In this document: one piece after another, positions 31,894 to 60,484 of the stretch | How the letters are laid out: the number at the start of each line of letters is the position of its first letter | How positions within the stretch are numbered: position 1 is the stretch's first letter | DNA from: a virus | Lineage: Duplodnaviria; Caudoviricetes | Virus record (IMG/VR): IMGVR_UViG_3300028833_003296 | Coordinates: 15,736-79,735 of that record | DNA: 64,000 nt | Reading direction: 5' to 3' (one strand) | Notes under the pieces: model-generated | The model's database searches: none | What the model was told of the DNA's origin: nothing | What the model saw: the letters and a program-made list of their open reading frames with translations, nothing else | Translations under genes and position numbers: made by a program

Positions 31894-31920
31894 TTAAAGG
31901 GTTGGTTTCCAACCCTTTAA
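31894..31920. repeat. Perfect 12-bp inverted repeat next to att core
   Basis: TTAAAGGGTTGG-TTT-CCAACCCTTTAA. Confidence 0.85.
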
Positions 31921-32018
31921 TCGTTGTCGGAGGTAAAATGGTCGGTGAAAAATCGGCAGTTACTTTCTTGTTTTATTATTCTTATCTAACAATAGGCCAT
32001 CACGCAAAAATTTTAAAG

Positions 32019-33212
32019 ATGGCTAAAAAAAATTTTATCAGTCGCGAAAAACAGAAAGCAATCGACGAGATCGTCGGTTGGAAACCGCCTGTGTTTCATC
32101 AGGCATCGGAATGCTACGTGTCAGTATCGGCTTTCGATCCTGCACGTGGTCAGTTCAGGATCAAGAAATTCATGCTCGGGCATGTGAAGGGTAAACGTCA
32201 GCAGAAGGTTTACGGTGAAGCACTAATTAAGAGGATTACAGAGAAACTGATGCAGGGATGGAATCCTTGGATTGAGATTATGCAACCGATGGAATATACT
32301 TCGTTCGACGAAGTATGCGAAAAGTACAAGGAATATCTAATGAAGATGCTGAAGGAACGTAGCATGAGGGAAGAGACGGTGGCATCATACACAAGTAGGT
32401 TGAAGGTTCTGATGGACTGGAAGGTTAAGGAGAAGATAAACCTGTACTACACTTACCAGTTTAACAAACGCATAGTTGGGCAGTTTCTGGACTATGTATT
32501 CGTTGAACGCAACAACACCATCAGGACCAGGAATAATTACCTGTTGTGGATTAAAGTGTTCTGCAAATATTTGCATGAACGTGGGTATGTTCCGAGTGAT
32601 CCCTCCGCAGCTTTCCACAACGTAAATCCAAAAGGGCATCAAGGAAAGAATAGGGACATAATTCCTGATGACATTCTCCAAGAGTTGCACGATTGGTTGG
32701 CAGTACACAACAAGCACTTCCTTTTGGCATGCTATGTATTGCATTATTGCCTGGTGCGACCACGCGAGATGAGTTTTCTTAAAATACGCGACTTCTCCAT
32801 AAAGAGACAAACGCTACATTTACATGGCGACACGACAAAGAACCATAACGATGCTGTCATTACCGTTCCACAGCAGGTACTGAAGTTAATGATTGAACTG
32901 AAGGTATTCGATAGTCCAGGGAATTATTATCTCTTTGGAAAGGGCTTTTCTCCTGGAGAAGAACGATGCAGCGAGAAACAATTCCGTGACTATTGGCACC
33001 ATTACGTCAGGAAAAACCTGAAGCTCACAAATCGCTACAAGTTCTACTCACTCAAGGATACTGGTATCACGAATATGCTACGGGCAAACACCGACATCTT
33101 AACGGTGAGAGATCAAGCAAGGCACAGTAGCATACTCATAACGGATATCTACACGCCAAAGGATATCAAAGCTGCCAACGAAATGCTGTTAAATTATCAC
33201 GGAATGCTCTGA
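32019..33212 (+). CDS. int: Tyrosine recombinase (phage integrase)
   Basis: LVRPRE, TK, YSLKDTG, QARHSS, TDIY motifs. Start set at MAKKNF. Confidence 0.92.
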   Translation: MAKKNFISREKQKAIDEIVGWKPPVFHQASECYVSVSAFDPARGQFRIKKFMLGHVKGKRQQKVYGEALIKRITEKLMQGWNPWIEIMQPMEYTSFDEVCEKYKEYLMKMLKERSMREETVASYTSRLKVLMDWKVKEKINLYYTYQFNKRIVGQFLDYVFVERNNTIRTRNNYLLWIKVFCKYLHERGYVPSDPSAAFHNVNPKGHQGKNRDIIPDDILQELHDWLAVHNKHFLLACYVLHYCLVRPREMSFLKIRDFSIKRQTLHLHGDTTKNHNDAVITVPQQVLKLMIELKVFDSPGNYYLFGKGFSPGEERCSEKQFRDYWHHYVRKNLKLTNRYKFYSLKDTGITNMLRANTDILTVRDQARHSSILITDIYTPKDIKAANEMLLNYHGML

Positions 33213-43012: not shown

Positions 43013-45148
43013 CTAACTGGAAGGAACAACCATAAGATATACCGTCGTACGCGTGTAAGTACCATCGACAATCGTATATGATGTTTGCTCATAATAGCGA
43101 TGGGCAATCATGTATGCACTTGGAACCGGTGGATAAATGACGCGGAATGTCCGCTCCTTGTCTGCCCCCGAATTGTTGTATTCACTCTCTGATACGCTCT
43201 GCCTGTCACCCATGGCAGCCCATTGGTACTGTGCTTTCATGATGGGCAGTACGTCATCAACGTCGGGAGCTTTGGAGAAAGAGTCGTCAACATGGTACCG
43301 CAACGACCGGAACTCACATTCCATCGGACCGTCATTACCGCCAAGGATGAACTTCAATTTCCCAACCAGGAAGGGAACGCCTCTTACCGTGACCTTGGAA
43401 TGGGCAGGCAACGTCTGTTTTTTCGATTGCGGGAGCAGCAGGTTCATCTTCACCGTCTGCAGGGCGTTTCGCAAAAGCGTATCGTATTCACGGTAGAACT
43501 TTTCGAAGATGCCACACGGTCCATAATAATACAAGGCATAACCATACCATATAGACAAAGGAATGTCATAATTCCACAAGGGTCCCGAAAACCACTTGTC
43601 GATCGACGAGAGTGAACCCTTGGTATAGGCGTTGGAATAGCCAGGGTTCATGATATACGAGAATGCAAGCATCGGGAGAAGTTTGTTGGAATCCTCTTCG
43701 GCCTCGCCACCTTCAGCATCATAAACCTCCAACTTGGAGTTAAGCGTAGTGTATTTACCCACATAGAGCCATTTGCCAAACGTGAAGTCAGCACTTGGAA
43801 GCAAGGAAGGAACACCCTCCCATGTCTGGGTTCTCGGTTTCAGTACTCGATACTCAGGAATGCAGTCAGGAATCTCCACCTTCTCCGCTTCAATATCCTC
43901 ACCGGTGTCGTATGGCATGGATGCGTCTGCCACCTTCACCTTGACGCGGTTGAAACCCGAGAAGCCGTCCTTATAGAATGCTCCCGTATATGGATCCAAG
44001 TAGGCAGAGGGATTGTCGGCTATAAGCGAAGAGATGTTGTCGTACGTGGTGGCATTCTCATCGTCACCGTCGGTACCGAGAGTTTTCTTGGAAGACAGCA
44101 CGATTCGCTTGTAATCCTTGGGGGCCTTGTACTCAACGGTCGGCTCATCCGTCAGGCAATCCGTAAGATCCAGCGAAGAATTTGATGCCAATACGTCTTT
44201 CAGGAATATGACATTAGCCGTGCGAGTGCCTTCATCCGACGTAAATTCACAGCAAAACTTCTTGCGAAACACCGTAAGAAACTCTGTGCAAGTAACGTCT
44301 GGCAGCAAGTCGGCAATCTTGAGCTGCCCGTTTACGATTGGGTCTATCACGTTGTTCAACAGCACCATGTCAACGAAAGGTTCGGTCTCACTGAAGAAGT
44401 TGGATTGCAACGTATAGCCGAAATGCTTGAATATCCTCGACAACACATAATTCGTCTTGACGAAGGGTGAGATGTAATAACCAGGAGTAATCGTGATGGG
44501 AACCTGGTTCACGTATTCCGTTCGCTGATAAGCTCCGTAGAAATCACAGGTATCCCCTATTCCGTTAGGATAGTTTGTTCCTGGCCTGTTGTCTATATCT
44601 TTAAATATGGTGCAATAGGCATTGATAACCTTGTAGTTTAAGCCTTCGTCCATACCAGAGTCATCATCCACGAGTACGGGGAATATCGCCAAGCGGTCGG
44701 AATAACGGCTCCTACCCAATCGTAACTTCCGGCATTCCTCAATGGCTGATTGCACTCGCGCCTCGATGTTGTTGCCGCCAAATTGTATGATATCGTCTGC
44801 AAATATCTCTTTCAGGCGAACGTTTTGTATGCGCGAATAGAAAGAACCGTCATTGATGTAGAACGACGTGGAGATATTGCCCTTGTGTTTGGCCGACAAC
44901 ACGAACTGCCTGCACTGGGCGTAATACTCACCGTCTTGTATGCTGGCGCGGATGGCCTTTGCCTTGGATTGCGAAGCCAACAAGTCAGGATAGCCAAGGA
45001 TTCGACGGTTGTGGTCAGAGGCGGGCAGGTCAACGGGTACCGTTTGCTCGCCATACTCATAGAAAAAGGGATTGGTGCGTTCCACCTCAATCTGCGCACC
45101 CTCTGCGAGCTCGTAAGGCTCTCCCTTGTCAAGATTGGTTATTCTCAT
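43013..45148 (-). CDS. Tail hub/distal tail protein
   Basis: 711 aa directly after the tape measure (ATGA overlap), IEVERTNPFF N-terminus. Confidence 0.65.
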   Translation of the reverse strand: MRITNLDKGEPYELAEGAQIEVERTNPFFYEYGEQTVPVDLPASDHNRRILGYPDLLASQSKAKAIRASIQDGEYYAQCRQFVLSAKHKGNISTSFYINDGSFYSRIQNVRLKEIFADDIIQFGGNNIEARVQSAIEECRKLRLGRSRYSDRLAIFPVLVDDDSGMDEGLNYKVINAYCTIFKDIDNRPGTNYPNGIGDTCDFYGAYQRTEYVNQVPITITPGYYISPFVKTNYVLSRIFKHFGYTLQSNFFSETEPFVDMVLLNNVIDPIVNGQLKIADLLPDVTCTEFLTVFRKKFCCEFTSDEGTRTANVIFLKDVLASNSSLDLTDCLTDEPTVEYKAPKDYKRIVLSSKKTLGTDGDDENATTYDNISSLIADNPSAYLDPYTGAFYKDGFSGFNRVKVKVADASMPYDTGEDIEAEKVEIPDCIPEYRVLKPRTQTWEGVPSLLPSADFTFGKWLYVGKYTTLNSKLEVYDAEGGEAEEDSNKLLPMLAFSYIMNPGYSNAYTKGSLSSIDKWFSGPLWNYDIPLSIWYGYALYYYGPCGIFEKFYREYDTLLRNALQTVKMNLLLPQSKKQTLPAHSKVTVRGVPFLVGKLKFILGGNDGPMECEFRSLRYHVDDSFSKAPDVDDVLPIMKAQYQWAAMGDRQSVSESEYNNSGADKERTFRVIYPPVPSAYMIAHRYYEQTSYTIVDGTYTRTTVYLMVVPSS

Positions 45149-48100
45149 GTCTTACTTCCTATTTTGCGTGACTGACTGCGTAGTTTTTGTTGTGCGTCGA
45201 GCTCGTCAAGGGCCACGAACGACTTGATGCCCCTTGTCTCCAGTCTCTCCAGAACGGAGAGCAACCTCGTTATGGTTTCGGGATTGACGGTCTCCATCTG
45301 ATTGGTACGCACCACGACGGTACCGCCATTGACACCTTTGGCTGCTGGTTGACTCCCTTGTGCATGCCCCGTCATGTAGCCACCCTGTTGCAATCCGCGC
45401 ACTTGTTGCTGCAGCAAATACTTGCGCATGTCAAGCGTACTGATGGTACCAACACGCTGCGCACGGTCAATGATGTCAATGAGTGGGGCGACCGTTGGAT
45501 TGGTGACTGCGGCATTGCTTGCCACCCACTCACGGCTTTTCCCCGTAGGACCTTCACCGACGATAACAGTAGGATGGTCAATATACCCGCGTTTGAGCGG
45601 ATCGTATTTGGCATGGAACATCTTACCGTCTTGCTTGCGTTCTATGTCCATGCTGCCACCACTGGCGAGACCAGTTGCCATGGGAGCGTCCTTATCCGTC
45701 TCCTTGCGACGCTTCTGGGGTTCCTTATTCTTTGGAACGGGAATGCCTTCGCTTTTCTCGTCGATGGAACCGCCATCCTCAAGACCCGTGGCGACACGGG
45801 AACCCGACACCTGGTTAGACGACGTAGCACCGCTAAGAGTCATTCGCTTCACCTTCTCTCGCTCTGCATTGGCTGCAGCCAACTGTGCCGCACCCGTCAC
45901 TCCCATCAGGGCTGCAGCGATGGGACCTGCAATGGGACCGAGTTCCGATATCGCCTTCATGATGCTGACGGCGGTATCGGCAATGATCTGCGAAGCCTTG
46001 ATGGCAAAGTTGACATCCGCGTATTTCTTTTGAATCTTCAGCTTCTCGTTGGCTTTCTTGTTCTCTATGTCGGTGGTATCCTCCCCAGCTTGGCGAGCTG
46101 CCTCTATCTCCGCATCGTACTTGGCATCCACATTGGCAATCTCCGCTTCCTGAAGGGCAGAAAACGCTGAGCCGAAGAGCTGGGAGTAATAGTCGAACTG
46201 CTGCTTCCAGGATTCCATTTTCAGGTTTTTCAGAGCATCTTGATAGTCAACTTCAGAGAGGAACCCTTCGTCGCGCTGTTCCTGCAGCTGCAGTTTTTGC
46301 TTCTCGAAGATTTCCTTTTGGGATATAAGACCATATTGCTCACGGATGGAGAATATCTTATTCTCACGGTCTCTCTCCATGTTTTTAACCGCTTCATTGT
46401 ATTGCTCCTGGGTGAGCTTCTTTTGTTTCAGGTGCTCTCTCAGCAAAGCCAATTCTCGCTCATACTGCTCTTGTGCCTTCACAAGTCCGTATTGCTCACG
46501 AATGTTGTATTGGGTTTGAGCCGTACTTTCCTCATAATCCCTAATCAGCTTAGCCTTGGCTTGCTCATACGCCTGGGTAATGCCGTTCACGTCCTCCCCA
46601 TGAGCCTTGGCATAGTCAACGGCAGCCTTGTAGTAGGCTTCCAGTGCATCAAGTTGCAGTTTATGGTTGCGTTCACGTCTCTCTTCTTCTGTCATGGCAG
46701 CTTCGCTAAGCTGCTTCTGCGCATCGTAGTATTGCTGCATGGCATCAAGATGTTTTTGCTGGAATGCCCGACGTGCCTTCTCCTCATTGTCTTGTTGTTG
46801 TAAGACGATGCGTTGTTTGTCGTTGCTGTCCTTGATCTGCAGCTGACGTGCCTTTTCAGTAAATCCCTTCTCAATGTCATAAATCTTTGCTGTATGAGCC
46901 ATCTCCATGGCCAAAGCTTGGGAATTGTATTGCTCCTGGCTGATTTTCCTCTGGATAAGGTTCTGCTTGAGAGCCTCCATTGCCTGATTGTAGAGTTTCT
47001 CTTGTGCATCCAGTTCTGCATTGCGTTCGTTGGCGAATGCGGATTTTTGTTCCTGTCCCACCTTGTCAGCGCTACTCCCAGTGTTTTTCTCATGGTTCAA
47101 GAAAGTGGGATTCAGAATCGACTGTCCTTGCCCGCCATTCTCCTTGACTATCTTCCAAAGCCTGTCGTTCTGTGCCGAATAGGCTTTCACTATGGCTTCC
47201 TCTTTCCTGATTATCTGGGTACGATCTGCAATGCCCCTTTGTTGCACTTTCAGATATTCAGTCTTGTCTCCAGGATCCCACGCGTAATTGAGCTTCACTC
47301 GGTCAAGTTGACCTTTGTCGTTATGAACATCGTTGAAACGAACCATGCCATCGTCACCAATATTCTGAGTGTCCAAGTCCACGCCAGTCTTCCTCTTGGC
47401 ATTAGCCTTGATATTGGTCACGTTTTGTTTCTGTTGGTCGATATTGTCCTGGGCATCCATGATCTTGCGCTGGTTCTCCTTGATACGCTCGTATGCCACC
47501 TCTGCAAGTGCAGCCTGTTTCAATTTATTGATATACGAGTCTATGATCTTCGTGTTTTGCTTGAAAAGGTTTCCCTCTCCGTTGATGGATGCATGATATC
47601 CTGGTACCAGCTTCTGCAAGTCCTGTATGGCAGCCTTACGTTTGTCGTATGATTCGTTGGCATCGTTGATGGTCTTGCGAAGCGACTTAATCTTGGTAAT
47701 CTGCTCCGATGTGGTATCGTTGACACTCTTCTTGATGCTGTTGTTCTGTGCTTGGATATCTTCTGCAAGTTTTTTGTGTAAAGACATAAAGTCAACAACA
47801 GCCTTAGAAGCCTCCTTATTACGGGTTATCCATCCATAGAGAGCCGTTCCTGCTGCAATGATGGCAGTTGCCAATGCCACATAGACGTTGGCCTTACATG
47901 TCTTATTGAACAATTTCATGGCAGCAGTGGCTCGCGTGGTGTTACCGCTGAACGTGGCTATGGCAGCACTCATGAGCAAGCCAATGCCCCTCATGGTGGT
48001 GGCTGCTGTCTGCCAGGCTATGGTAACGGCGCGAGCTACTTTGGTCTGTACGATATAATTCCTGATTTGCGCATTGAGTGCTATCATGGCCACACTGAAT

Positions 48101-49257
48101 CCCATAACGGCCACGGTGACTGCCAACATGGTTTTCCTATGCGTGAGCAGATAGGTGATAGCTTTCAAGATGTTTATCTGGAAGCCACCGAAAGTCTCAT
48201 CTATCGCTTCTTTCCATGGGAGCAATGCCTGACCGAGTCTCATTTGGGCATTCTGCAAATCCGTGGTTTTCCTCAATGCCCTATCAGCTGCCGACACATA
48301 GGTTTCACCAGCATCAGCCAACTGGTTTTCCACGATGCTTGCCACCGCCTTCATGAAGTCGCCCGTCTCGGCAATCTTCTCATCTATTTCAGCAGCTGAG
48401 ATGCCAAGATTATCGAGGATCATCTTGCTCTTACGACCAAGACCTGTGACAATTGAGTTGGTCATGTACTCCACGGACTGCCCCGTCTGTTGTGCTTTCA
48501 ACTGTGCAAAAGCAAGATATTTTCCGAGATCTTCCAACGGAATCCTGAAGTCTTTGGCTTGAACGGCTGCCTTCATCAGCTCGAAATCGTTCACGGTTCC
48601 CTTGGTTGACTTTCGTAAGTTCTCCAGCAATTCAGCATTTTTGTCTATATTGTTGAAAGCATGTGCCACGCCATCGGCAGACTCGGCAAGTTCTATGGAA
48701 TCAGAAATGAGAAAACGTAAATTATCTCTTAATTTACCTCCTAAGAACTCCGCTAATTTAACAAAAATAGAACCTCGCAAAAAACTCATAGTATTTTCTT
48801 CAAGAAGTGAACCTTTTAATCCTTTCGCACTATCTTTTAACTGATTAATTCTTGCAGTAACATATTTAAGTCTGTCCTCCAACTTTATATACGCATCAGG
48901 ATTAAGTGATTTAGAAGTGTCATCAAGCTGTTTCTGAAGCTGCTTGGCTTGCTTCTTCAACTGGTTCATCGTGAGACAATTCACTTTAAGACTATTGGTT
49001 TGTTTGGCTATTTTCTCGGTGTTTGCTTTAATTTCCCTTCCAACTTCATTATATAATTTCTTGAGGTCTCTATATTGTTGGGATTCCTTCTTGCCTGCAG
49101 CCTCGAGCTTGATCATCTGGTCAAGTCGACGTTTGTTCTCTGCCCGAAGGTCACCAGTTGCCTTTTCTATCTTACGTATTTCCTGCTGAGCCTTGGCTGA
49201 CTCAACATCGACGATATACTTGATTTCGTCTTCTGAGATATGTTTGTTGTTTGCCAT
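45145..49257 (-). CDS. Tail tape measure protein
   Basis: 1370 aa, long coiled coils, central hydrophobic Ala-rich segments. Confidence 0.88.
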   Translation of the reverse strand: MANNKHISEDEIKYIVDVESAKAQQEIRKIEKATGDLRAENKRRLDQMIKLEAAGKKESQQYRDLKKLYNEVGREIKANTEKIAKQTNSLKVNCLTMNQLKKQAKQLQKQLDDTSKSLNPDAYIKLEDRLKYVTARINQLKDSAKGLKGSLLEENTMSFLRGSIFVKLAEFLGGKLRDNLRFLISDSIELAESADGVAHAFNNIDKNAELLENLRKSTKGTVNDFELMKAAVQAKDFRIPLEDLGKYLAFAQLKAQQTGQSVEYMTNSIVTGLGRKSKMILDNLGISAAEIDEKIAETGDFMKAVASIVENQLADAGETYVSAADRALRKTTDLQNAQMRLGQALLPWKEAIDETFGGFQINILKAITYLLTHRKTMLAVTVAVMGFSVAMIALNAQIRNYIVQTKVARAVTIAWQTAATTMRGIGLLMSAAIATFSGNTTRATAAMKLFNKTCKANVYVALATAIIAAGTALYGWITRNKEASKAVVDFMSLHKKLAEDIQAQNNSIKKSVNDTTSEQITKIKSLRKTINDANESYDKRKAAIQDLQKLVPGYHASINGEGNLFKQNTKIIDSYINKLKQAALAEVAYERIKENQRKIMDAQDNIDQQKQNVTNIKANAKRKTGVDLDTQNIGDDGMVRFNDVHNDKGQLDRVKLNYAWDPGDKTEYLKVQQRGIADRTQIIRKEEAIVKAYSAQNDRLWKIVKENGGQGQSILNPTFLNHEKNTGSSADKVGQEQKSAFANERNAELDAQEKLYNQAMEALKQNLIQRKISQEQYNSQALAMEMAHTAKIYDIEKGFTEKARQLQIKDSNDKQRIVLQQQDNEEKARRAFQQKHLDAMQQYYDAQKQLSEAAMTEEERRERNHKLQLDALEAYYKAAVDYAKAHGEDVNGITQAYEQAKAKLIRDYEESTAQTQYNIREQYGLVKAQEQYERELALLREHLKQKKLTQEQYNEAVKNMERDRENKIFSIREQYGLISQKEIFEKQKLQLQEQRDEGFLSEVDYQDALKNLKMESWKQQFDYYSQLFGSAFSALQEAEIANVDAKYDAEIEAARQAGEDTTDIENKKANEKLKIQKKYADVNFAIKASQIIADTAVSIMKAISELGPIAGPIAAALMGVTGAAQLAAANAEREKVKRMTLSGATSSNQVSGSRVATGLEDGGSIDEKSEGIPVPKNKEPQKRRKETDKDAPMATGLASGGSMDIERKQDGKMFHAKYDPLKRGYIDHPTVIVGEGPTGKSREWVASNAAVTNPTVAPLIDIIDRAQRVGTISTLDMRKYLLQQQVRGLQQGGYMTGHAQGSQPAAKGVNGGTVVVRTNQMETVNPETITRLLSVLERLETRGIKSFVALDELDAQQKLRSQSRKIGSKT

Positions 49258-49287
49258 AAAAAAAGCTGTCTGTTGTTATCATTAGTG

Positions 49288-49322
49288 CAAAGATAGCAAC
49301 AGACAGCGATATGGTAAAGGAC
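49288..49322 (-). promoter_or_regulatory. Prophage B late-type promoter GTCCTTT-N20-TATCTTTG
   Basis: Upstream of the tape measure gene. A partial duplicate lies at about 49603-49630. Confidence 0.65.
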
Positions 49323-49332
49323 AGGACGCTCA

Positions 49333-49494
49333 TCAACGACTTCTCCACCAAACCCAGAAGGGTATAGCGAGAACGGGGGTCAGCAAAAGGCATAATCCGA
49401 AATACAGAAAGCATGTAAACCATGACCAATCCTCATTCTTGATGAAGAAAGGCATTGATATGAGAATTATAATTATGTAAATTACGGTGAACAT
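49333..49494 (-). CDS. 53-aa two-helix membrane protein, cassette 1 (not in ORF track)
   Basis: MFTVIYIIIILISMPFFIKNEDWSWFTCFLYFGLCLLLTPVLAIPFWVWWRSR*. Confidence 0.75.
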   Translation of the reverse strand: MFTVIYIIIILISMPFFIKNEDWSWFTCFLYFGLCLLLTPVLAIPFWVWWRSR

Positions 49495-49521
49495 ACACTT
49501 ACTCTTTCCTTCATTTTACAT

Positions 49522-49559
49522 TGCAAATGTAAGCATTTGTCTTGAATTATGCAAGGGGA
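49522..49559 (-). promoter_or_regulatory. 38-bp repeated promoter, copy 1
   Basis: tgcaaatgtaagcatttgtcttgaattatgcaagggga, reading CTTG-N20-TACATTTG on the minus strand. Confidence 0.75.
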
Positions 49560-49630
49560 AATTCCAATTCTTAATGGTAATAATCCCTTTTTTTGTTTTC
49601 TGAACAGACAGCAATATCTTAAAGGACAGG

Positions 49631-49783
49631 CTATGGTCTTCTCAACCACCAATAGAGTAATCCAGAAACAGGAGTAAAGAACGTACTGATAAGCAAGAAC
49701 CACTTCCATTCATGCTTATCAGAAGCTGGGTATAGAACCAGCATCAATAACAGTCCGATGATAAAAGAAAAAATCACTATCAT
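49631..49783 (-). CDS. 50-aa two-helix membrane protein, cassette 2 (not in ORF track)
   Basis: MIVIFSFIIGLLLMLVLYPASDKHEWKWFLLISTFFTPVSGLLYWWLRRP*. Confidence 0.7.
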   Translation of the reverse strand: MIVIFSFIIGLLLMLVLYPASDKHEWKWFLLISTFFTPVSGLLYWWLRRP

Positions 49784-49813
49784 AATATTTATCCTTTCTC
49801 CTTATTATTCTAT

Positions 49814-49851
49814 TGCAAATGTAAGCATTTGTCTTGAATTATGCAAGGGGA
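49814..49851 (-). promoter_or_regulatory. 38-bp repeated promoter, copy 2
   Basis: Identical to copy 1. Confidence 0.75.
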
Positions 49852-49879
49852 TTTCCCTATTTTGCGATAGGAGAAAAGC

Positions 49880-50038
49880 CTATCCCTTGAATACGAACTT
49901 ATATAGAAAAATACCTATAGGAAGAGTGAAAGCAGCACAAAGACCCAAATAAATAAAACAAGCGAGCCATGACCAATCTTCCGCCTTGATGACGAAGAAC
50001 ATGGATATTAGTATTGCAAAGATGTAGATTGAAAGCAT
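49880..50038 (-). CDS. 52-aa two-helix membrane protein, cassette 3 (not in ORF track)
   Basis: MLSIYIFAILISMFFVIKAEDWSWLACFIYLGLCAAFTLPIGIFLYKFVFKG*. Paralogue of cassette 1. Confidence 0.75.
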   Translation of the reverse strand: MLSIYIFAILISMFFVIKAEDWSWLACFIYLGLCAAFTLPIGIFLYKFVFKG

Positions 50039-50068
50039 AATCTTTTCCCTTTCTCCTTGTTATTATGC

Positions 50069-50106
50069 TGCAAATTTAAGCATTTGTCTTGAATTATGCA
50101 AGGGGA
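50069..50106 (-). promoter_or_regulatory. 38-bp repeated promoter, copy 3
   Basis: One mismatch versus copies 1-2 (TAAATTTG). Confidence 0.75.
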
Positions 50107-50111
50107 AATCC

Positions 50112-50597
50112 CTATTTTTGATGGTAATAATCCCTATTTTTGTTTTCTGGATAGACGACACCATCCGTCTTGTCTATGTGAACGAACTCCTCTTTAAACT
50201 CGAAAGACAGTACTGTGTTGCCACCTTGGTGCGCAATCAGTAAACTTCCTTTAGTGATGATGTCCATACCGATGATGAAGTCGATGTCAGCGAGTGGGAT
50301 ATCGTGTTCCATGACATCTACGATGACAGCATGGTTCTGATCGCCAGGCATGGCGACGGACACAACTGCCCTACAAGTGTATTTGCCCTTGATTCCAAGA
50401 AAGCTTTGAGAATAGCCAGCCGTTTCGAGCTTCAGGAATTCAGACACCTTATCCCTTATGACAGAATATGTTGCTCCAGTATCCCATATAGCAGGAATGA
50501 CTACCTCACGACGATTGATGGGGTTGACAATACGAATGGGGGTTATGAGTTTGGTAGCAATACCATCAAACTCCTTCTGATAGACGTTATCTTGCAT
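50112..50597 (-). CDS. Retropepsin-like (clan AA) aspartic protease
   Basis: AIWDTGAT catalytic motif and DFIIGMDII. Start set at MQDNVY. Confidence 0.85.
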   Translation of the reverse strand: MQDNVYQKEFDGIATKLITPIRIVNPINRREVVIPAIWDTGATYSVIRDKVSEFLKLETAGYSQSFLGIKGKYTCRAVVSVAMPGDQNHAVIVDVMEHDIPLADIDFIIGMDIITKGSLLIAHQGGNTVLSFEFKEEFVHIDKTDGVVYPENKNRDYYHQK

Positions 50598-50823
50598 AGC
50601 GTGACGGTTTTGGGGTGAAACAACTGGAATCTTGTCCGCACCGTTGGACAATGAAAGTCCCTGGCTGATAGCCTTCACCGACCATCTTCATCCACAGCGA
50701 GGCACAATCATCTCCGAAGCCGATGACTTGAAGGTTTTTGATAGCCACGCACTTGTTGCCAAATACTTGATAGTAGGCATCGGCATGTTTTACGAAATAC
50801 TCGAAATCTGTTATCTGTTCCAT
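50587..50823 (-). CDS. DUF5678-like small protein
   Basis: FEYFVKH..YYQVFGNKCVAIKNLQVIGFGDD pattern. Overlaps the protease start. Confidence 0.65.
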   Translation of the reverse strand: MEQITDFEYFVKHADAYYQVFGNKCVAIKNLQVIGFGDDCASLWMKMVGEGYQPGTFIVQRCGQDSSCFTPKPSRYAR

Positions 50824-54641: not shown

Positions 54642-54824
54642 TTAAAGCCCGAGTTCCTGATAGATAGATTTCAAAGTACCTTTTGGCACTTCTTCCGTTC
54701 CATGCCGCCCGACTCTTGTTTGTCTTCCATTTTTGGAATTCTCCCAAAGATCGTGACGAGCACCATGATGAAGTAGAAAGCATCCTGCTTTTCTTAACTT
54801 CTTGTACAACTCGTTGTACTTCAT
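54642..54824 (-). CDS. hicA: HicA-family toxin
   Basis: MKYNELYKKLRKAGC..HGARHDLW..VGRHGTEEVPKGTLKSI. Confidence 0.9.
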   Translation of the reverse strand: MKYNELYKKLRKAGCFLLHHGARHDLWENSKNGRQTRVGRHGTEEVPKGTLKSIYQELGL

Positions 54825-56221: not shown

Positions 56222-56239
56222 TTAAACGAAATTATAAAT

Positions 56240-56437
56240 ATGAAAGTAATAAAAGTAAGGAAGATCCTGAAGGCGTTGAGAGATGACGGATGGACACTCA
56301 AGCATCAGGTAGGGAGTCACGCCCAGTACGTTCATCCCATTAAACCCGGGAAGGTGACAATCAATGGCACAGGCAACGACGACGTGTACGGTGATCTATT
56401 GAAAAGCATTGAGGAGCAATCGGGGCTGGAGTTTTAG
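56240..56437 (+). CDS. hicA: HicA-family toxin
   Basis: KALRDDGWTLKHQVGSHAQYVHPIKPGKVTI. Confidence 0.9.
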   Translation: MKVIKVRKILKALRDDGWTLKHQVGSHAQYVHPIKPGKVTINGTGNDDVYGDLLKSIEEQSGLEF

Positions 56438-56569
56438 CGAACTCCTTCCCCTCTACTTAAATTCTTCCTAAATTCGATTATTGAGGTTTCCAGAGTGGCA
56501 GTAAAGAATCATAATGATTTGTGCCACTCTTTATAAAGGAATTATGATAGAAAAGATAACTTAATTTTT

Positions 56570-56977
56570 ATGGCAACTGTAATTATGAACACCGCACGTA
56601 CCGAAAACGGGTATAGTTGCGCTTGCGATCTGCTCCCAGGTTGGGTAGTAGCATGCTCAGGCGACTTTGAGCAGTTCAAGAAAGAAGTCGAAGACAGCAT
56701 CAAGTTCTATATTGACTGCGCGAAAGAGGATAACGACGTATATCCTGCAGTCTTTGACGAGGAATACGAAATTGTCTATAAGTTTAACGTCCAATCGCTA
56801 CTCGAATTTTATCGCGGCATTTTCTCTTTTTCATCACTGGAGACCATCACTGGTATCAATCAAAAGCAGTTGGCTCACTATGCATCAGGTATTAGTAAGC
56901 CACGTCCTAAACAAGCAGAAAAGATTGCTAACGGCCTGCACAAGTTGGCGAAAGAGATGATGGCAGTAACAGTATAA
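56570..56977 (+). CDS. hicB: HicB-family antitoxin with HTH
   Basis: YSCACDLLPGWVV..FKKEVEDSIKFY plus TGINQKQLAHYASGISKPRPKQ. Confidence 0.8.
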   Translation: MATVIMNTARTENGYSCACDLLPGWVVACSGDFEQFKKEVEDSIKFYIDCAKEDNDVYPAVFDEEYEIVYKFNVQSLLEFYRGIFSFSSLETITGINQKQLAHYASGISKPRPKQAEKIANGLHKLAKEMMAVTV

Positions 56978-57116
56978 ATCACAAATTAATCCCGAAATCT
57001 TTTGCAGGTTTCGGGATTTTCTTACTAAATAATTTTCTCGTAAGGATATACCCCTTGAAAGGTGGAAGGTGCAAACCTTGATAATTATCATTCAATGGGT
57101 ATGATTCTTCTTTAAA

Positions 57117-57782
57117 TTATCCGTTTTCTGCAAATTGTTTCCATTTATCAGGGATTCTATAGGTAATAGTACCTACTGTTACTTCATCATCCATAACAGC
57201 TTCGGCGAATCTTATTTCATTCAGATCGAGCAAAGAAGGCTTACCCCCATGACGCATCAAATTGTCAGTTAAATCTCGACAAGAAACAGATGGTGGAAAA
57301 TAGACCTTAATTTTCTTATCTTTAAAATGCCTCTGTATAAACTCTAAAGGCGGAACAAGGTCACTATCAGCACTTATCAACACAAGAGAGTCAGTTTTAT
57401 TGAGTATGCAGTCTGCCATCATACGAACAGAGATATTTACGTCCGTTCTTTTTTCTTCTGGCCGTGGAATTGTACCCTTACACAAAGGACATGTAATGTT
57501 TTTTGTAAAATATTTGCCCCTGACGATTTCAAAACGATGGCCATTTAACAACCTGTTAGCATTCAAAAATGCACTTTGCCTACTGTTTTTATCTGGCCTT
57601 AATGGAGATGCCGTAAAATAAACTACTTTCACAAGCTCTTGGTCTGGTCCTAAAAAACTATTGCAAAACTTCACCATATCGAGCCAGTAATATTTACCCC
57701 ATTTGGCATCGGCTTTACGGGAGCGTCTTAAACCATAGTAGAAGTTGAACCCGTCCACATAGAAAGTAATTCTTTTTGTCAT
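57117..57782 (-). CDS. NYN/LabA-DUF88 (PIN-like) nuclease with CxxC insertion
   Basis: FYVDGFNFYYG, EEKRTDVNIS, LISADSDLVPPL motifs and CPLC. Confidence 0.9.
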   Translation of the reverse strand: MTKRITFYVDGFNFYYGLRRSRKADAKWGKYYWLDMVKFCNSFLGPDQELVKVVYFTASPLRPDKNSRQSAFLNANRLLNGHRFEIVRGKYFTKNITCPLCKGTIPRPEEKRTDVNISVRMMADCILNKTDSLVLISADSDLVPPLEFIQRHFKDKKIKVYFPPSVSCRDLTDNLMRHGGKPSLLDLNEIRFAEAVMDDEVTVGTITYRIPDKWKQFAENG

Positions 57783-57850
57783 AGATATTATAAAAATAGC
57801 CGCTCGGAAGCGGCTGGTCTCTACAAGAAAGTAGAGCGATGCTTGTTAAT
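57783..57850 (-). ncRNA. Two-hairpin leader of second NYN gene
   Basis: CTCTAC/GTAGAG and AGCCGCT/AGCGGCT hairpins, then AUUUUU before ATG. Promoter TTTG-N20-TAACTTTG at 57857-57888. Confidence 0.5.
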
Positions 57851-60076: not shown

Positions 60077-60484
60077 TTATTTGACGTGAATGACCTGCAT
60101 GCGATTGCCAGTTGTGGAATACGATACGTGTACCCAGTTGTATCCGTGTTCGTCTATGAGCTGGTCGAACGGCAAGCCCAACTTAACGATTAGGTTGAAC
60201 AGCACCTTATTGTCTTGCGGCAAGTCGCTCACCGAGCGAATGTCAGCAGCCTGTCCCTTGATATGCTGGCTCTTGGCTGCACCACCGACTACTCTGTTGA
60301 GCTTGGCACATCGGTACCCTGAAGATACGATGATGGGCTTGCCATAGGCTTCACGCAACGGGTCGAGCACGTTGTCAACGAGAGCCGTGAGGTTGGCCAC
60401 TATCTTTCTGTCGGGCGTATTGTCTATGCCCTTGCGTTTGGCCGTCGGGCTATTGGTAAGCTCGTGAATGGTAAAATGCTTCAT
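60077..60484 (-). CDS. Endolysin, peptidase M15A family
   Basis: SSGYRC..LNRVVGGA..SQHIKGQAADI and WVHVSY zinc-peptidase motifs. Confidence 0.9.
   Translation of the reverse strand: MKHFTIHELTNSPTAKRKGIDNTPDRKIVANLTALVDNVLDPLREAYGKPIIVSSGYRCAKLNRVVGGAAKSQHIKGQAADIRSVSDLPQDNKVLFNLIVKLGLPFDQLIDEHGYNWVHVSYSTTGNRMQVIHVK

Follow-up and report, generated by a model that had tools for sequence, protein, structure and literature searches.

A 64-kb window of phage DNA, the final 64 kb of the 79.7-kb IMG/VR virus record IMGVR_UViG_3300028833_003296, belongs to a rumen Prevotella prophage and carries three micro-protein genes in tandem between an Asp-protease-like gene and the gene for the tape measure protein (TMP), all genes being on the minus strand. 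Open reading frame (ORF) 1 (49333-49494, 53 aa) lies nearest the TMP gene, followed upstream by ORF2 (49631-49783, 50 aa), the most divergent of the three, and ORF3 (49880-50038, 52 aa). The profile hidden Markov model (HMM) of the family matched them with E values of 1e-24, 3e-13 and 4e-22, respectively. Each ORF is preceded by a 38-nt promoter repeat (49522-49559, 49814-49851 and 50069-50106, with 0, 0 and 1 mismatches) at a distance of 27-30 nt from the start codon. The repeat occurs three times in 64 kb, against none expected by chance, and the repeat family extends to 83 nt. Within it lie a -33 element, a 20-nt spacer and a -7 box, the last of which fits the Bacteroidetes promoter consensus (PMC12632263). 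Promoter 1 (49524-49555, minus strand) precedes ORF1, promoter 2 (49816-49847, minus strand) has a 38-nt core identical to that of promoter 1, and promoter 3 (50071-50102, minus strand), with its -33 element, 20-nt spacer and Bacteroidetes -7 box, lies 30 nt from the ORF3 start codon. When viral contigs were searched with the exact promoter, one relative was found (L002; L numbers denote fetched loci). A palindrome across the -7 box, sought throughout the window as a possible shared operator, was present only at the three promoters.

Two scars separate ORF1 from ORF2. The first (49560-49602, minus strand), upstream of promoter 1, is a copy of the 3' end of the protease-like gene; together with the promoter it forms a repeat (49502-49618 versus 50049-50165, 83% identical) that takes in the last ~50 nt of the Asp-protease-like gene, the part of this gene that overlaps the region upstream of promoter 3. 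The second (49603-49630, minus strand) reproduces the upstream portion of the TMP promoter and terminator; it has a -33-like element and the beginning of the 5' arm, lacks a -7 box, and is 89% identical to 49298-49325. A preliminary description of this DNA had reported three 38-bp promoter repeats, each followed by a two-helix ORF of 50-53 aa, the motifs shared by ORFs 1 and 3 (IK.EDWSW..CF.Y.GLC) or found in ORF2 (HEWKW..FFTP), and remnants of the protease end (about 49570-49602) and of the TMP promoter (about 49603-49630). ORF calls and a repeat search found the three promoter-plus-ORF cassettes, and the motifs and both scars were likewise where they had been placed. The order ORF1-ORF2-ORF3 is bridged by contigs from three sequencing runs of three studies, and since the cassettes were assembled independently in this order three times, a misassembly is unlikely.

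The encoded proteins form a family of 34 clusters at 50% identity, found among 1.8 billion representatives with a profile built from the three ORFs and one relative. ORF1 shares 48% identity with ORF3 and 35% with ORF2, and nearly all family members are either 50-55 aa long ('short') or 68-80 aa long with an acidic tail ('long'). Each of the three products has two hydrophobic segments. AlphaFold2, run with the family alignment, predicted a helical hairpin with a predicted local distance difference test score of 83 (helices at residues 2-17, 25-37 and 40-52) and a kink in the second helix at a conserved Thr-Pro. Orthologue pairs had ratios of nonsynonymous to synonymous substitution rates (dN/dS) of 0.11, 0.22, 0.27 and 0.10: the ratio was 0.11 for ORF1 and its orthologue in a chromosomal array described below, 0.22 for ORF2, whose orthologue P0005 occurs on at least 25 contigs, and 0.27 for ORF3 and its chromosomal-array orthologue, which are 96% identical. 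Other family pairs had corresponding ratios of the proportions of differences (pN/pS) of 0.2-0.3. The ORFs are thus conserved and evolve under purifying selection, where a lack of conservation would have spoken against the preliminary description, and the substitution pattern identifies them as real genes. No meaningful relatives were found in Pfam, where none of the 29 members tested reached significance, or in PHROGs, PADLOC, NCBIfam, the ESM Atlas or a Foldseek comparison with viral structures. The family has no name and, owing to the small size of its members, is mostly unannotated. We also considered mimicry of the TMP and rejected it, since the members did not resemble their own TMP, nor was a TMP-like small ORF found within the window.

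Between the ORF1 stop codon and the TMP start codon lies a promoter-containing terminator (49258-49322, minus strand). A hairpin with 19-nt arms (49289-49307 and 49265-49283) followed by seven T (49258-49264) immediately precedes the TMP start and has a folding energy of -27.6 kcal/mol (z -4.4). The -7 box of the TMP promoter (49288-49295) is located at the end of the 5' arm of this hairpin, with the -33-like element (49316-49322) ~20 nt upstream; the same pair of elements was confirmed at four sites, namely before the TMP gene and three other late genes. Ten relatives with different arm sequences keep this layout, with the -33-like element first, the -7 box within the 5' arm, then the complementary 3' arm, the T-run and the start codon, and their folds beat shuffled sequences with z from -5.5 to -10.7 (loci of this type include L003:3165-3240, L021, L023, L027, L035, L037, L039, L041 and L077). 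A simple consensus terminator scan missed the main hairpin on account of its long loop; folding and a repeat finder each caught it. A transcript from the TMP promoter would begin in the loop, would lack the 5' arm and hence would escape termination; therefore the element should be able to stop cassette transcripts and yet launch TMP transcription. The cassette promoters may then fire in the lysogen, while the terminator would keep their transcripts out of the tail genes. Such a promoter-containing terminator would be a neat, reusable insulation device. At L022:4160-4240, an inverted repeat downstream of a family member pairs a segment immediately upstream of the -7 box of the p132 promoter with the first p132 codons; it also occurs at other loci with the order member-p132-TMP (L032, L034, L036, L045, L046), has no T-run, and could hide the p132 start codon in read-through transcripts.

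A moron (PMC3594210, after Juhala et al. 2000) is extra DNA between genes that adjoin each other in relatives, with its own promoter, its own terminator and a deviant base composition, that is expressed from the repressed prophage, and all of the features that concern sequence are recognizable in the array. Near-identical -33/-7 promoters lie 27-30 nt before the start codons, and a -7 box is found 20-60 nt upstream of the start codon in 54 of the 75 distinct family genes. The terminator is the hairpin with seven T at 49258-49307. In L047-L049 and L054, p132 is directly followed by the TMP gene, as it is, judged by the family HMM, in 18 of 80 viral loci, at least five of which carry a divergent member below threshold. 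The array has a GC content of 0.363, whereas the TMP gene has 0.478, the protease-like gene 0.451 and the window's prophage part 0.455. Judged by these features, the region is a stack of three morons, each consisting of a housekeeping-type Bacteroidetes promoter and a gene for a predicted inner-membrane hairpin of ~50 aa, with one predicted intrinsic terminator closing the stack. This supports the proposal in the preliminary description of independent promoter-plus-ORF units in the slot beside the TMP gene where phage HK97 carries gp15, and adds that the units end in a terminator (PMC3594210). We regard both the moron architecture and the existence of the gene family as well supported, with little room for doubt.

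The preliminary description had suggested that this locus be surveyed in related prophages. We searched each fetched locus with the family HMM and, by BLAST, against the neighbouring proteins of the window. Of the 80 IMG/VR loci with a related TMP, 62 have a family member upstream of the TMP gene: 54 loci have one member, six have two and two (L084 and L085) have three. Arrays of divergent members recur in relatives. The other 18 loci have no member above the HMM threshold, and at least five of these carry a divergent sub-threshold member. Nearly all examined Prevotella and Bacteroides prophage loci have a member beside the TMP gene, in the order member-p132-TMP or p132-(protease)-member-TMP, and none was found in the Parabacteroides and Porphyromonas relatives. 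The family is accessory yet unusually persistent in this lineage, which spans rumen, gut, oral and vaginal Bacteroidales. The three-member array at L084:1797-2921 is independent and belongs to another phage; there, the first member has no promoter of its own and overlaps the end of a gene for a two-helix membrane protein of 140 aa, and a clear promoter is present only at the third member.

The array was originally thought to have grown by tandem duplication and to be diversifying. The scars of unequal recombination are indeed real, but divergence in place did not hold. Between the three paralogues, synonymous sites are saturated (pS 0.75-0.90), although their promoters are identical at 37-38 of 38 positions, and for each paralogue a far closer orthologue exists in the chromosomal array or elsewhere among phages (dS 0.06-0.52). 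Since the paralogues are saturated and much closer orthologues exist elsewhere, the scars are the record of unequal recombination by which old cassettes that were already distinct became stacked. At the junction 49602/49603, the start of the TMP promoter of one phage is joined to the end of the protease gene of another. In the relative L002, the same promoter precedes a 70-aa member, after which comes what remains of an ORF3-type 3' end. In L028 and L030, p83, p99 and p132 are 100% identical to those of the window, yet the protease, the family member and the TMP are different. We conclude from these comparisons that the array is a recombination product of pre-existing cassettes and not the result of duplication with local divergence.

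The family is not confined to phages. Among 401 Prevotella species genomes, 29 (~7%) contain the family, 17 contain this type of TMP and 14 contain both, so that 15 of the 29 family-positive genomes lack this TMP. Of 20 loci that were fetched, four have the member beside an intact TMP gene, three among fragments of p132 or p99, and 13 among ordinary host genes, for example those for a TonB-dependent receptor, a sulfatase, peptidases or an ABC transporter. Most orphan copies keep a promoter, and orphans stay under purifying selection. Rumen contigs of up to 62 kb even carry a chromosomal array of five cassettes between a gene for a 284-aa protein and pflB/pflA (L055:4015-5234; also L012-L020 and L056-L058), in the order ORF1-type, ORF2-type, 70-aa type, ORF3-type and 77-aa type. 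After its last cassette come 15 nt that match the start of the window's TMP promoter exactly, and its spacers resemble the protease 3' end. This TMP-promoter remnant and the protease-like spacers speak for a transfer from phage to chromosome. Judging from substitution patterns and from such junctions, bacteria keep captured cassettes under purifying selection, and cassettes move between phages and from phage to chromosome by recombination at the conserved promoter and its flanks.

Several further observations concern these loci. Contigs often break at the chromosomal array; the variant L062 has three cassettes, and one RNA contig shows another order. The 284-aa gene beside the chromosomal array has no family match, and its identity with the window's own ORF of 284 aa was rejected, the two being unrelated. 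In P0003 (82 aa; on a Logan contig of 6355 nt), a deletion fuses the ~43 first codons of the 284-aa gene to an ORF1-type member from residue ~16. Decayed or rearranged Prevotella loci (L039:3487-6155, L064:3711-5651 and L041:2355-3925) have members interleaved with truncated 5' pieces of the TMP gene and with fragments of p132, p99 or the protease gene.

The suggestion that each member matches a particular tape measure was followed in 63 distinct member-p132-TMP loci, with statistics that ignore phylogeny. Member divergence correlated with the divergence of TMP residues 1-200 (Mantel r 0.80), and the partial correlation given p132 was 0.65, whereas the intervening p132 given the member had a partial r of only 0.20. 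Similarly, the clustering of members agreed better with that of the TMP (adjusted mutual information 0.76-0.79) than the clustering of p132 did (0.58-0.61) at k = 10 and 14. The member type thus tracks the type of the TMP N-terminus across p132, a pattern that would be expected of a physical interaction and is suggestive of one. This part of the suggestion therefore gained tentative support from the 1-200 region; the association is, however, lost at coarse clustering (k = 6) and is uncorrected for phylogeny, which limits its weight. As for p132 itself (annotated as 'neck' in Porphyromonas phages), it tracks TMP residues 800-1100 (partial r 0.73) more than the adjacent TMP N-terminus, which hints at an interaction or at a shared recombination module.

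The best reading of these data is, by analogy, superinfection exclusion through the TMP, and we give it an even chance of being correct. The micro-proteins would sit in the cytoplasmic membrane and interfere with the TMP of an incoming phage of the matching type, so that no channel would form and no DNA would enter, in the way described for HK97 gp15, T4 Imm and TP-J34 Ltp; a stack of several different members would widen the range of excluded phages. We favour this reading because of the parallel to gp15, the reported binding of Imm to a TMP, the retention of orphan and arrayed copies by hosts and the co-variation with the TMP. HK97 gp15 is encoded in the slot before the TMP gene with its own promoter and terminator, is located in the inner membrane and has non-phage homologues (PMC3594210); exclusion by gp15 depends on the tail and TMP genes of the incoming phage and is escaped by a swap of tail genes (PMC3594210, PMC10883804). 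T4 Imm has been reported to bind the TMP (bioRxiv 10.64898/2026.03.06.709160), and for TP-J34 Ltp, the TMP was identified as the target according to work cited in PMC10883804.

Like gp15, the family studied here consists of small, here predicted, membrane proteins whose genes carry a promoter and a terminator of their own directly before the TMP gene and have homologues outside prophages. However, there is no sequence relationship to gp15 or YebO, the phylum and the promoter type are different, and the array members have two helices; moreover, the family is present in ~80% of the phage lineage rather than sporadically, and it occurs in stacks of two to five divergent members, including the chromosomal arrays. 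T4 Imm is likewise a small membrane protein with two hydrophobic helices, one that blocks DNA entry, and the co-variation of array members with the TMP would fit an Imm-like interaction. It differs in that it comes from a lytic, contractile-tailed phage, is expressed early, is present in a single copy and is not encoded beside the TMP gene, and no homology to it was detected. TP-J34 Ltp and Tuc2009 Sie2009 are prophage-expressed, membrane-anchored proteins of Gram-positive systems that block DNA injection by siphophages, but these lipoproteins or larger anchored proteins have their genes near the lysogeny module and are not micro-hairpins encoded next to the TMP gene, and they are unrelated in sequence. 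The family is therefore best described as a gp15-like moron from an unrelated, unnamed micro-protein family that is lineage-wide, stackable, exchanged with chromosomes and insulated by the promoter-containing terminator. The searches made here turned up no injection-blocking exclusion protein for Prevotella, Segatella or Bacteroides, which dominate the rumen and the human gut and whose phage resistance is poorly understood.

More tentatively, and with less confidence than for exclusion as such, Bacteroidales phages and their hosts may trade a library of self-promoted membrane hairpins, each tuned to one type of TMP N-terminus. Phages would stack these genes, and bacteria would capture them, up to five by pflB, for heritable, prophage-free immunity to DNA injection; the promoter would serve as the recombination joint and the promoter-containing terminator as the insulator. 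If the members do block DNA entry in a TMP-type-specific manner, this would account for some of the structure in the host range of these phages, provide a compact, testable model for the recognition of a TMP by a hairpin of 50 residues, and mean that hosts build arrays of captured exclusion genes.

Several points weigh against exclusion. No homology of the members to known exclusion proteins was detected, and the orphan copies lie outside recognizable defence islands. The co-variation disappears at the coarse clustering mentioned above, and a presence in ~80% of the lineage could alternatively reflect a function within the cycle of the phage itself. That the TMP promoter is a 'late' promoter is something we infer. 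Twelve RNA runs contain the array, but their contigs show neither transcription nor strand nor level, and the runs were picked for containing it. In three of four runs, the RNA contigs span the array and only a little of the tail genes, and in one run they cover the whole tail region at similar depth; given this choice of runs, and because contigs cannot rank expression, uncovered flanks count as no evidence. The deepest RNA contig is that of the chromosomal array, and it reaches upstream of the first promoter there. For RNA libraries X6 and X9, coverage elsewhere in a 16-kb stretch falls on 54646-54824 (the edge of hicAB) and 56231-57836 (the region of a NYN nuclease); these genes are accessory, and the X6 and X9 contigs, with identities of 90-95%, may come from relatives.

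The main rival to exclusion, which we consider rather unlikely, is that the family is a lysogenic-conversion or housekeeping micro-protein unrelated to phages, modulating either membrane stress or some membrane protein of the host, such as a transporter, a sensor or an enzyme of lipids, and that phages took up a generic fitness gene, much as gp15 derives from the host YebO. The phage is missing from about half of the Prevotella genomes with the family, the orphans are found by ordinary metabolic and envelope genes with synteny across species for some of them (L065, L066 and L067), the promoters are of the housekeeping type and no PADLOC defence model matches. A general benefit to the host leaves unexplained, however, the fixed place beside the TMP gene in ~80% of the related phages, the tracking of the TMP N-terminal type across p132 and the stacking of divergent members in phages and hosts alike, and the phage scars in the chromosomal array mean that at least that transfer was from phage to host.

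The same position beside the TMP gene, its high prevalence and the co-variation with the TMP N-terminal region would also be expected if the micro-proteins were partners of the phage's own TMP in the lytic cycle, guarding the producing cell from a pore-forming TMP or helping in tail assembly or ejection. We regard this as improbable, since a terminator separates the member from the TMP gene, the promoter type differs from that of the four late-type promoters of the prophage, and members are absent from related phages with homologous TMPs. Multiple divergent copies in one phage and promoter-bearing orphans in phage-free genomes are equally hard to explain for such a partner.

Still less probable is that the array encodes small membrane toxins of a type I toxin-antitoxin-like, abortive-infection or holin-like kind. 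Several type I toxin families are small hydrophobic proteins encoded in tandem arrays with conserved 5' regions. The tandem loci ldr, ibs/sib and zor/orz of enterobacteria resemble the array in their repeats of a promoter and a tiny hydrophobic ORF, and here too conservation is higher in the non-coding 5' region than in the ORFs. A type I system, however, has an antisense RNA gene over the toxin mRNA, and no plus-strand -7 box is present within any of the cassettes; the nearby plus-strand matches are only at 49239 (TMP start) and at 50113 and 50135 (protease 3' end). The array further differs from such loci by its two helices instead of one, its strong constitutive-type promoters without an evident antitoxin, its tail-operon context and its shared terminator. 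An identity as a holin or lysis cassette was rejected because the endolysin gene (60077-60484; phrog_894, E 1e-38) is ~10 kb away. Finally, the notion that the ORFs are not genes but chance reading frames between repeated regulatory DNA, which their very short length and the better conservation of the promoter repeats might suggest, is in our view refuted by conservation and substitution pattern, namely the 34 clusters with conserved length and motifs, dN/dS of 0.1-0.3 in many comparisons and the confident helical-hairpin model.

Elsewhere in the window, a tyrosine integrase gene (PF00589) is located at 31902-33212, and tail, lysis and head genes occupy the minus strand from ~33.7 kb on. The TMP gene (45145-49257, minus strand) encodes 1370 aa with matches to phrog_25337 and phrog_167 (both tail length tape measure protein) and to phrog_32115, and the protein is 35% identical to annotated TMPs of Porphyromonas phages. 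Its relatives belong to prophages in Prevotella, Segatella, Hoylesella and Bacteroides, with Porphyromonas gingivalis phages being more distant, and the nearest metagenomic relatives come from ruminant samples. A DNA search of the phage collection with the array region gave no match.

The Asp-protease-like gene directly upstream of the array (50112-50678, minus strand) matches PF13650 (E 1e-4) and PF13975 (E 5e-4), neither of which reaches its curated cut-off, and a protein-pattern search of viral contigs for it found nothing. Homologues are present in L002, L007, L027-L031 and L033 and absent from L003-L006, and the gene is thus accessory, being found in only some relatives. Together with an overlapping ORF of 78 aa (DUF5678-like in relatives, by weak precomputed matches), it occupies 50112-50823 of the window, and this pair, present in the same relatives only, is itself an accessory insertion in the TMP slot. 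More generally, the stretch from p99 (chaperone-like) to p132 and the TMP gene is a cargo slot in this lineage (L022-L026:1-4000; L052, L054), in which we found a DNA methylase (PF00145), HicA/HicB, SocA_Panacea and a gene annotated as 'acr candidate'.

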